This document shows positions 11,701 through 28,376 of a DNA stretch of 64,000 nt, in pieces. A program made the translations under genes and the position numbers. The notes under the pieces were generated by a model. That model was not told the origin of the DNA and made no database searches. It saw only the letters and a program-made list of their open reading frames with translations. This DNA is from Octopus sinensis. Its lineage: Eukaryota. Every line of letters begins with the position of its first letter. Positions within the stretch are counted from its first letter, which is position 1. The DNA lies in NCBI RefSeq assembly GCF_006345805.1, contig NC_043012.1:58466001-58530000 (forward strand). Reading direction: 5' to 3'.

Positions 11701-12689
11701 GCTGCAAATGCATGAATGTGTGTGAGGAAAACCATCAACATCACAGAATACAGTTCTCTTTTCTTCCTGTTTATGGTAATACATTCTTGTAAGAGATCAA
11801 TATGGAAATATTCTGGAAAGTAATGTCGACCATCATGTTTAAATAATCATCTTCTATCCAAATGGTCTACTTATTCCGGATAAATACTCTTATTATAAAG
11901 TTCATAACCGTTTTCTTTGAAACTAGTATTCTTATTCGAACTTAGTACATTTACTACAAAGTTCATACTCATTTAAAAACCTACACCGAAGAAGACAACA
12001 ACAACAACAACAACAGCAGCAGCAGCGGCAGTAGTAGCAGCAGCAACAACAACAACAACAACAACAACAAAAATAACAACAACAACAACGACGGCAATAA
12101 CCACAACAATAACAAAAATGAACTGATTTTTATAGTATTCAATTCTGCTGTCTTCTGTTGATCGATTTCTTCACAATTTCCAGTTGATAAACAGAAACCG
12201 TTTCTGGCATTTGTTCAAGTAAACAACAAGCAACCGGCGAGGCATGGAAGGAGAGCGGGAGGGGAGGTAGGGAGGGAGGGAAGGAGTGGGTAGGGGTCGG
12301 GAGAGGACGGTTAGTTTTTCGCAAAGTGTTATCACTATTTACTACCAATGTACATCTGTATTGTTCCGATTAGCTTAGTTTATGATTGGCGGCAAGTAAT
12401 AATGATTTCTTACCGAGGCACAATTCCACATATTTAATGTAGAAAGAAAATGAGAGAATGAATAAAATAACTTTACATCATATTTACCGGTGGCGACCAT
12501 CTTTCTTTTCATATGCATGTATGTATATGTATATGTATGTGTGTATGTCTCTTTGTATGTATGTGTATATGTATGTACCTCATTTCCACACACGCCAGTT
12601 GAATTCAATTCGTCCACAGCCAAAAGACACTTGTTGTTTTGTCCCGTTATTATTGTTTTTATTTTTATTGTATTTATATTTGTGCAACA

Positions 12690-12966
12690 TTGTCCGTTTT
12701 TCCGTCCTTGTGTTTGTATACATTCGATGCTTTCTTCCAAGGAATCTAATGCTCTTACCTTAGATTTTCCTCGGGGCTGACCAGATTGGAGCAATCTCAA
12801 GATTAATCAGCCGAAATTGGGAGGATGATCCGGTTCTTGACTGAGGATAGAAGGCTTCGAATGACCCGTCCTTGTTTTTTTGTATCGTCTATCTGGATAT
12901 TTTGTTCTCCCTTTTTTGTATCACCTAGTTGTCCGGATGTTTTGCGTTCTTGTCCCATTTTGTATT
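12690..12966 (+). mobile_element. Short dispersed element (family B) carrying a permuted hammerhead-like RNA motif at 12721-12863
   Basis: Homologous to 28141-28376 (-). Its 3' end abuts (TA)n. See findings for the structure. Confidence 0.75.
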
Positions 12967-13091
12967 ATATATATATATGTATATATGTATGTTTGTGTGT
13001 ATGTGCGTATATATGTATGTGTATATATATGTATGTATGCGTTTATTTATGAATTTGTGTATACGTGTGTATTTTACAGTTCTATATTTAA

Positions 13092-13343
13092 GAGATGAAG
13101 AATTATGTACATTATTTACATTATTTATATTTGACGGATATTTGTCCTCATCTTGTTTGTTGTTAACACAACGTTTCAGCAGATATACCCTCCAGCCTTC
13201 ATCAGGTGCCTTGGGGAAATTTCGAACCTGGGTTCTCACTCCTATTATTATTATTGTTTTAAAAATAAAATATGGTCCGTTGTCTTCTGCTTAATCGGGG
13301 TCATCCCTTGGCCCTAGCGTCACAGTAGGTCCTCATATCATGG

Positions 13344-13429
<86 letters not shown>

Positions 13430-13510
13430 CTTATTATTATTATTCAGTTCACTGCTTGGAATCGAACTCGGAAACTTGATGTTAGTAGCCCGCGCTCTTA
13501 ACCACTACAC
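13092..13510 (-). mobile_element. tRNA-headed, hammerhead-tailed SINE-like element (family A)
   Basis: tRNA-like head at 13444-13510 (GTAGTGGTTAAGAGC, GAGTTCGATTCC), then (AAT)n, then HHR at 13165-13210: GGCAC-CTGATGA-A-GGCTG..CTGCT-GAAACGTT-GTGTT. Confidence 0.7.
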
Positions 13511-13630
13511 CCTGGTTCGAAATTTCCCCAAGACACCTGATGAAGCCTGGAGGGCATATCAGCCGAAACGTTGTGTTAACAACAAATAAGGTGAGGACAA
13601 ATATCCGTCAAATGTAAATAATGTAAATAA
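13511..13630 (+). mobile_element. Inverted partial copy of the family A hammerhead tail
   Basis: GACAC-CTGATGA-A-GCCTG..CAGCC-GAAACGTT-GTGTT at 13532-13577. Confidence 0.8.
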
Positions 13631-13632
13631 TG

Positions 13633-13666
<34 letters not shown>

Positions 13667-14788
13667 TGTATGTATGTATGTATGTATGTGTGTATGTGTG
13701 TACATATATGTCTGTTTAGGATTTTGGCGAATGCACAAGTCTTCATAAGTGATGGGAGAAAATGAGACGTTGTGATGTTCATGCCTTCAGCTTAAACATT
13801 AGTGAGAATTTGACTTGATATGACTCATGACAAGAACCGAAAGCGTATAGTGTATAGACCCACCTTAGTTAAGCCTTTTGCTTCCTATGCTGTGTGGTCG
13901 ATCGGTAACCTTTCTCCTTTGTTTTCAGCATTGGGCTGTATTTTCTGCTTTTCTTCTCCCTGATATTGAAGCTTTTGAATTATCAATGCTTATGTAACCC
14001 TCCTTTTGTTTCAAGATAGCGATGTTGGCCCTACATAAACCCATTTTTACCTCTCGGAAGTGGTGGTGCATATTAGTTTGGCCTCTATCCTTTGACCTGG
14101 CCGACAAGGCAAGCACTACCAGGAACTTGCACACCGCTGATATGCTGGTAGAGCCTTCAAGTAAGTGAGAGATAGAAGTCACCACATCACAGCAAGGGTT
14201 GGACACTAGGACAAAGTATAAACCGAAGTGCACAAAAGTTAGCGAAGTGAAAGTTGATTACATCAACCCCAGAAATTAATTGGAACTTTATTTTATCGAT
14301 CTTGAGATAACGAAGTGGGTAGTTTGACAGAGATGACATTTGAAGTCAGAAAGTAAAAGGATACATCAAATCTCTACCATCGGAACGCACAGCTATCTTT
14401 TTATCATACAAATTTCCCATTAAGCTATTAATTTCCGGGGAAAGAGAGCGATCATTATTTTCTAGGGTACAGTACTGTTGATTTAATAGATCCGATCTCA
14501 GAATATGATTTGTACTTAAAGATTCTATAGTGACAATAAGCAAAGACCGTCTCCTTTTATTCGTTCACTCTTTTATTGATTTCAAACATTCGAGTTTGGC
14601 CATATTAGCCTAGAACCAAAACACATCATTGTTTTATCAACTGGTGTAAATTAAAACATACGCAGACACACACACAGACATGTACCGTAACTGTATGCAA
14701 ATTATATACGTATGTGTGCGTGCGTGTGCATGTGTGTGTGTATACATAACTATATGTGTGTGCGTGCGTTTGCTTGCTATGTATGGAT

Positions 14789-28140: not shown

Positions 28141-28376
28141 AATACAAAAAACGGGACAAGAACGCAAAACATCCAGACATACGATACAAAAAACAAAGAC
28201 GGGTCATTCGGAGTTTTCTGTCTTTAGTCGAGTTCCGGATTATCTTTGCAATTTCGGCTGGTGAGATTACTCCAATCCGGCCAGCCCCAAGGAAAAACTA
28301 AACTAAGAGCACTAGATTCCTTAGAAAAAAACAGCGAATGAATACGAAAACAAAGACTGTATACGAAAGCAAGAAC
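28141..28376 (-). mobile_element. Family B element, second copy (motif at 28205-28340)
   Basis: Reverse complement aligns to 12690-12966. Confidence 0.75.

Follow-up and report, generated by a model that had tools for sequence, protein, structure and literature searches.

A candidate split-core hammerhead ribozyme of the non-circularly permuted family near the 3' end of Naiad-type retroelements

The repeat copy and its predicted fold

The window, a 64-kb stretch of genomic DNA, contains at positions 12580..12966 (+ strand) a 5'-truncated family A copy of an ORF-less retroelement with tandem units of ~780–810 nt; the ends of the copy were placed by eye against other copies. The copy has its 3' end fixed at a (TA)n run, and the adjoining (TA)n/(TATG)n microsatellite (12967..13060, + strand, right edge approximate) is the putative insertion target, (TA)n being the probable target of the ORF-less element in general. 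Copies of the family share a common 3' end at (TA)n, ~170 nt 3' of the cut predicted below, and vary in their 5' ends. Such a fixed 3' end with variable 5' ends suggests target-primed reverse transcription, and the polarity of the copies would fit this process with the + strand as the RNA. The longer copies are head-to-tail arrays of ~780–810-nt units without an ORF, as in the tandem at locus L014 (810-nt unit), and families A–C were all found as tandem arrays.

The original prediction described the repeat as dispersed, and this was borne out in G000, the animal genome that holds the window copy (2.7 Gb, rich in microsatellites, with Naiads closely like the published Octopus Naiads). A first look gave 3306 candidates, the best of the other copies being 93–95% identical to that of the window. 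A pattern combining the core with stem III had 4145 exact matches, compared with 0 for the reversed control, and a 3' anchor had 6143 matches. Subfamily B is very young (its 40 best copies are 99–100% identical), and subfamilies A and C are older. A second copy in the window (28142..28357, − strand) is decayed and subfamily C-like; its core is mutated, and it has a 7-nt deletion just after the predicted cut. Copies L360, L394, L395, L398, L433, and L436 are fused to an inverted, 5'-truncated piece of themselves, as described for PLEs.

The fold of the window copy lies on the + strand and starts with the 5' strand of helix a (12721..12735), the closing stem, which pairs with 12849..12863 in 14 of 15 positions. 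It is followed by hairpin b (12737..12774), which ends right before G10.1. The 5' strand of stem II (12775..12780, GGCUGA, with G10.1 at 12775) comes next, displaced from CUGANGA, and then the 5' strand of helix X (12781..12787), which is analogous to helix “I” of the type-SGC ribozymes and represents the putative stem I–stem II interaction helix. Block S (12792..12802) consists of the 5' strand of stem III (CAAU, 12792–12795), H17 (C12796, with the predicted cut 3' of it), and UCAAGA of stem I (12797–12802). A linker of 1–4 nt leads to block G (12807..12819), in which UCAGCC (12807–12812) pairs with GGCUGA as stem II and is followed by GAAA (12813–12816) and UUG to 12819, the block ending with the 3' strand of stem III. 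Downstream are the 3' strand of helix X (12827..12833), with one A–C mismatch in this copy, and a truncated block C (12835..12847), composed of UCUUGA (12835–12840), the stem I partner of UCAAGA, and CUGAGGA (12841–12847). A single unpaired U follows A9, and the 3' strand of helix a (12849..12863) completes the fold. Every strand lies inside ~145 nt of one unit. The blocks follow one another in the order S-G-C, with a break in block C between A9 and G10.1 that is spanned by two helices.

The hammerhead core (CUGANGA, GAAA, UH, A15.1–U16.1, and R10.1–Y11.1) was found in the window copy and in all nine representatives of the families described below; its letters were partly fixed by the search patterns, with the exception of the G10.1–C11.1 pair, which was present in 9/9 representatives. 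In the folded representatives, 0–1 nt separates the 5' strand of helix a from hairpin b, hairpin b ends at G10.1 or one base before it, and the 3' strand of helix a begins 0–1 nt past A9. In the family consensus stem III is 5 bp long; at 12820 the window copy carries a G where the consensus has C. Although the entire core is kept, the window copy carries three weakening changes (in stem III, helix X, and hairpin b), because of which it may be slower than the master.

A base-by-base reading found all the predicted coordinates of the core blocks, stems, hairpin, and closing stem to be right. The claim that the order of the pieces matches none of types I, II, and III also stood: these types have the order C-G-S or a rotation of it, without crossing stems, and here the order is S-G-C. 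A search against Rfam gave no match at the gathering level in the 64-kb window and no hammerhead match at E<=2 in 12500–13700, where only microsatellite-driven miRNA/snoRNA noise was detected; three metagenome loci gave one chance match. The minimum free energy of the window copy was unremarkable (z −1.86), which is expected for a fold with crossing helices. Two other pairings were considered and rejected. Stem II could be read as the letters right after CUGAGGA, paired with AGCC, but this reading requires an insertion of 5 nt and does not hold for the consensus of family A, and the segment 12841–12870, read as a type I hammerhead, has GAAU rather than GAAA and lacks the A15.1–U16.1 pair. Elsewhere in the window, ordinary type I minimal hammerhead-like motifs (CUGANGA, an extra A, stem II, and GAAAC) are located in other PLE-type repeats at 2500 (+), 13537 (+), 13205 (−), 50377 (−), and 63981 (−), those at 13205 and 13537 forming an inverted pair.

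Covariation, related families, and their hosts

Within the family, stem I occurs as UCAAGA/UCUUGA, UCGAGU/ACUCGA, and UCAAGU/ACUUGA, so that pairing is kept in subfamilies A and C and in the intermediates. Helices a and b also show compensatory changes among copies: a C–G pair of helix a is U–A in some copies, and an A–U pair of hairpin b is replaced by G–C between subfamilies A and B. The N7 position is U, G, or A. A second search pattern, restricted to the fixed core and three stem III pairs, gave 1465 matches in G000 compared with 83 in the control, and from these matches families E, N, and D emerged. Family E is a distant relative of A. These three other repeat families have the same architecture, one being the 3' UTR of a Naiad PLE and one the 3' UTR of an RLE non-LTR element, and their stems I and II and helix X are formed by letters different from those of A. 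The consensuses of all six G000 families (A, B, C, E, N, and D) form the three stems I–III along with helices X and b; helix a also forms and is weak in N. Across families H17 is C, A, or U, and the core is otherwise fixed, with N7 also free.

The rate at which such folds arise by chance was estimated with a null in which the core and stem III were implanted into random flanks, to which a base-pairing descriptor was then applied. Only 40–49 of 20000 implants passed, and 3–5 of 20000 did so at the observed stem strength; the null pass rate per family was 0.02–0.25%. On shuffled window sequence, the descriptor gave 1 match in 7.68 Mb. In metagenome contigs, among the matches listed, 13 of 120 pattern loci passed the descriptor, against ~0.3 expected, and the passing loci included two recurrent families, L310 and L307 (the latter cut off and with a looser fit). 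Among the 107 listed loci that did not pass, 13 were decayed copies of the two recurrent families, and the rest look like chance. In L223, a further metagenome family, stem I is perfect and the region of helix X is very short; the contig end cuts the locus off.

In the nine representatives, all cells were paired in stem I (54/54), stem II (45/45), and stem III (36/36), with up to five pair types per position (2–5 in stem I, 1–4 in stem II, and 1–3 in stem III); these counts are descriptive, as the families are related, four representatives were picked for passing the descriptor, and the stem III letters were fixed by the patterns. Stems I, II, and III flank the core and covary, as in a hammerhead. 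The comparison shows that the core and all predicted helices are kept across families with different letters. This stem covariation, the invariant core, and the accumulation of 5' ends at the predicted cut (next section) support the original prediction that a retroelement family carries a hammerhead-like fold of the non-circularly permuted kind. Stems I and III pair with different letters across families, and in the core N7 and H17 alone vary. The caveat of the prediction, that stem II is split, turned out to describe the new feature: in each G000 family and each passing metagenome locus the stem II partner is found upstream, and the A9/G10.1 break recurs in every related family, bridged by two helices.

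Two of the related families can be tied to a coding element. Family N lies downstream of the end of a Naiad ORF, its 3' end lies in (TA)n, and it matches the published Naiad_Ovul/Obim 3' ends; the assignment was based on the ORF's C-terminus, compared by eye with the DNA of the published proteins. In the 30 loci with a piece of Naiad ORF, the motif was found within the 1.5-kb flank in ~11. At metagenome locus L310, too, the motif is immediately preceded by the end of a Naiad ORF (tblastn E 6e-10). Family D forms the 3' UTR of a non-LTR element that encodes RT together with a restriction-like endonuclease (PD..ExTVPWEE); the RT + RLE ORF precedes the ribozyme, and both are spanned in 39 of the 40 top copies. 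We take this RLE element to belong to the clade HERO. The ribozyme of family D (L098/L133–L144) has the same stem I and II letters as that of the acanthocephalan Naiad_Plae (PMC8557442 File S5), which suggests that the ribozyme module has been exchanged between retroelement classes or hosts.

Naiads were reported to be free of canonical hammerheads, with eight families flagged “HHR_half_core” (Craig et al., 2021, PMC8557442). We viewed the 3' ends of 30 of the 54 published consensuses (File S5 of the same paper), mostly the last 480–600 nt, and parsed them by eye rather than computationally. In 13 of these 30 ends a non-circularly permuted hammerhead was recognized: 8 were split-core (Obim, Ovul, Esco, Bfor, Amil, 2_Movir, Plae, and 3_Chem), 4 had the intact CSG order (Parc, 3_Nbra, Hpol, and Smim, comprising nematode and spider Naiads), and 1 was SGC. 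The split-core ends include some imperfections, namely one stem II mismatch in Esco and stems I of 2 bp in Bfor and 4 bp in 2_Movir. The SGC example, Naiad_Sdum, has intact SGC in its 3' UTR with a U3:A8 core swap and a long hairpin instead of the short stem I–II linker. A permuted hammerhead fits 6 of the 7 “half core” ends viewed. In the part shown of the other 17 ends viewed by eye (Omin, Adux, 1_Skow, Mmer, 1-3_Dst, 1/2/4_Chem, 1_Movir, Ppla, CGi, Mcor, Scon, 1_Pfla, and Tama), no clear fit was found. Other recurring GC-rich 3' UTR motifs, which are not permuted hammerheads, occur in bivalve and hemichordate Naiads, in Naiad-1/2/4_Chem and 1_Movir, and in Naiad-1/2/3_Dst; they possibly represent other ribozyme classes.

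The ORF-less family of the window corresponds to a non-LTR retrozyme in being a tandem repeat without an ORF and with a hammerhead in each unit. No Naiad ORF (N-terminal GIY-YIG, CxC motif, and C-terminal RT) was found in or beside the examined ORF-less units, and no autonomous partner of families A–C/E was found; judging by its ribozyme, the family of the window probably descends from Naiads. In L084:1-1240 lies the 3' portion of a PLE resembling Neptune (with RT thumb, Cys linker, and GIY-YIG) that ends in the same (TA)n tract, and this PLE is a candidate for the class of partner of the ORF-less family. A link of its ORF to the family was rejected, and the ORF is regarded as an unrelated neighbor: it lies on the opposite strand and has its own type I motif, and only the microsatellite is in common. 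A Pfam search gave no match for this ORF piece or for two other ORF pieces.

Ends of copies at the predicted cut and alternative readings

Positions of 5' ends were compared in copies anchored 3' of the fold; of the 6143 matches, the first 100 listed for contig C1 supplied a sample of 90, and 87 copies remained after 3 duplicates were dropped. Within 0–19 nt past the predicted cut, 20 of 78 copies at risk had their 5' end. The 20 nt before the cut contained the 5' end of 1 of 58 (Fisher P 6e-5), and the interval from +20 to +39 that of 2 of 80 (P 2e-5). Two 5' ends were located exactly at the predicted cut, and one internal deletion starts exactly there. In an overlapping earlier sample, viewed by eye, 26 of 29 (TA)-flanked ends lay at or after the cut. 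The peak is centered 5–12 nt past the cut. The sequence there is AT-rich and has microhomology to (TA)n; this microhomology, or stalling of the RT at stem II, could account for part of the peak. Upstream stretches equally rich in TA/AT steps have few 5' ends. The count in family N, viewed by eye, was ~11 ends after and 7 before the cut over a high background (54 rows, control 19), and family E contributed 6 rows only. The pile-up is possibly a footprint of cleavage in vivo. Internal deletions starting at or a few bases past the predicted cut were also noted in L413, in the second copy of the window (28142–28357, −), and in L014:705-899; deletions from the cut onward are expected if the RT sometimes jumps a nick.

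These data were weighed against three other readings. The least probable is that the short motifs of a young repeat are arranged by chance and that the copies agree by descent only. Copies within a family are 93–100% alike and carry little information, and the folding energy noted above is just −1.86 in z; however, independent families with different stem letters all pair, and with null rates of 0.02–0.25% per family we regard this reading as refuted. More plausible than chance, and still very improbable, is that the fold derives from a hammerhead but is catalytically dead and is retained at the 3' end of the element to bind a protein or to signal where the RT starts. Its position near the 3' end of several retroelement types would agree with such a role, as would the offset of the 5'-end peak from the cut and the many copies that run through the site (46/87 extend >100 nt upstream beyond it). 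On the other hand, the 5' ends fall off sharply at the cut, and the catalytic core is fixed across phyla while N7 and H17 (C, A, and U) vary; together with the known U3:A8 swap in one spider family, this is the pattern of selection on catalysis.

Slightly less improbable, and nevertheless unlikely, is a ribozyme active only across tandem units or in circular RNA, with a silent lone linear copy and cutting restricted to multimers. A CSG core with a ~650-nt insertion closed by helix a would then be assembled from two units, with CUGANGA supplied by unit n and stem II, block S, and block G by unit n+1. The tandem arrays of families A–C would suit such an arrangement, as would the nematode and spider Naiads with intact CSG, of which the split form is a circular permutation, and dimers were proposed as the working form of canonical PLE hammerheads (PMC4209133). 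Against it, all strands are present in one unit within ~145 nt, Naiad_Ovul and Naiad_Esco are given as lacking a pLTR (PMC8557442), and family D is a plain 3' UTR; the helices are identical either way.

The reading that we strongly favor on the basis of the sequence comparisons is a hammerhead of the non-circularly permuted (SGC/CSG) family with a new, split-core topology, located near the 3' end of Naiad-type PLEs and of elements that adopted it. In such a ribozyme, a continuous strand (a 5' strand, 0–1 nt, b 5' strand) would pair both with the strand that follows A9 and with the one leading up to G10.1, and the stacked helices a and b would splint the broken backbone. The break would sit at the one place in the core at which an additional base is already tolerated in natural hammerheads; PLE hammerheads have an unpaired base between A9 and stem II (PMC4209133). 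Helix X with the 1–4-nt linker may stand in for the loop I–loop II contact. Cleavage would very probably occur after C12796, and tandem or read-through transcripts cut there would yield RNAs of unit length, with both ends held together by pairing and available for rejoining into circles; that rejoining produces circles which template tandem insertions has about an even chance of being right. The partner reverse transcriptase would prime at the nicked (TA)n target ~170 nt downstream of the cut, so that cut templates would give copies ending at the cut, and uncut or rejoined templates longer, tandem copies. Internal initiation of the RT is known for one PLE (PMC11167929), and animal retrozymes have been argued to derive from PLE pLTRs (10.64898/2026.07.22.740005).

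Comparison with known hammerheads and elements

Six block orders have been defined for hammerheads (Eckert, Friedrich, Weinberg, and Weinberg, 2023, PMC10085705), and block C was assumed to be uninterruptible. In that work the permuted types came from metatranscriptomes; type CSG comprises two metagenomic sequences, types SGC and CSG cleave in vitro, and the genomes of known organisms yielded none except one weak GCS candidate. Natural non-circularly permuted hammerheads had been brought up in the original prediction for comparison, and the order found here is indeed that of the published type SGC; new is the split-core topology, with the break between A9 and G10.1 bridged by two helices. Related variants could be present in the supplement of the same paper. 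In the covered parts of Forgia 2023 (PMC10162972) and de la Pena 2021 (PMC7936874), no hammerheads with helices inside the core were seen. The literature covered outside subscription journals, including these two papers and PMC13725137, contained, in the parts consulted, no report of a split-core hammerhead and none of non-circular hammerheads in animal genomes, in Naiads, or in RLE elements.

If the proposed reading is true, this would be the first hammerhead with its most conserved block broken and re-assembled from distant strands, which would contradict what the scheme of six permutations presupposes. It would likewise be the first case in animal genomes of an RNA permuted non-circularly. 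For ribozyme engineering, the A9/G10.1 junction would offer a new insertion site. Naiads are the most abundant PLEs of many invertebrates, and their reported lack of hammerheads was taken to hint that ribozymes merely parasitise PLEs; the published view of Naiads proliferating without hammerheads would be overturned. The role of PLE ribozymes would become testable, with thousands of copies recording RT stops relative to the cut. We consider it likely, as a joint picture, that non-circularly permuted hammerheads serve much of the Naiad clade, ranging from ctenophores to cephalopods, as the standard 3' ribozyme and occur in three topologies that can interconvert (SGC, CSG, and the split-core form with a two-helix splint for the A9–G10.1 bond), that the split-core module moved between retroelement classes, and that its cleavage takes place in vivo and has left a footprint of 5' truncations in thousands of copies.

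The window fold resembles type SGC in the order S, G, CUGANGA, the crossing stems I–III, the full core, the short stem I–II linker, and the extra helix that joins the far ends of stems I and II. In HRIMA-1 and its variants, which represent type SGC, a short linker and such a helix were described (PMC10085705), and the CCAGAUU/GAUCCGG helix is, by analogy, the counterpart of that interaction helix. In type SGC, however, CUGANGA is directly followed by stem II, within 1–2 nt, whereas here the 5' strand of stem II has moved to the 5' end, and two splint helices lie between A9 and G10.1. The split-core form appears to work like type SGC without being a strict member of it, since its block C is interrupted. 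Unlike that type, it is genomic, is carried by animal retroelements, and is present in thousands of copies in G000. With type CSG it shares the same circular block order, opened here inside block C.

Regarding the elements, the ribozyme is similar to canonical PLE hammerheads in its position near the 3' end of a tandem PLE-type unit and in the existence of ORF-less tandem derivatives. Canonical PLE hammerheads belong to the circularly permuted type I, have a weak stem III, and may need dimers, whereas the fold described here has stable stems of 4–13 bp, is pseudoknotted, and is self-contained. The element departs from the non-LTR retrozymes in its unit of ~800 nt and in having a ribozyme other than type I. 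With Naiad PLEs the family shares the (TA)n preference, the partial tandems, and a 3' UTR motif (Craig et al., 2021, PMC8557442); the family of the window differs in lacking an ORF, and folding of permuted forms does not feature in the covered parts of that paper.
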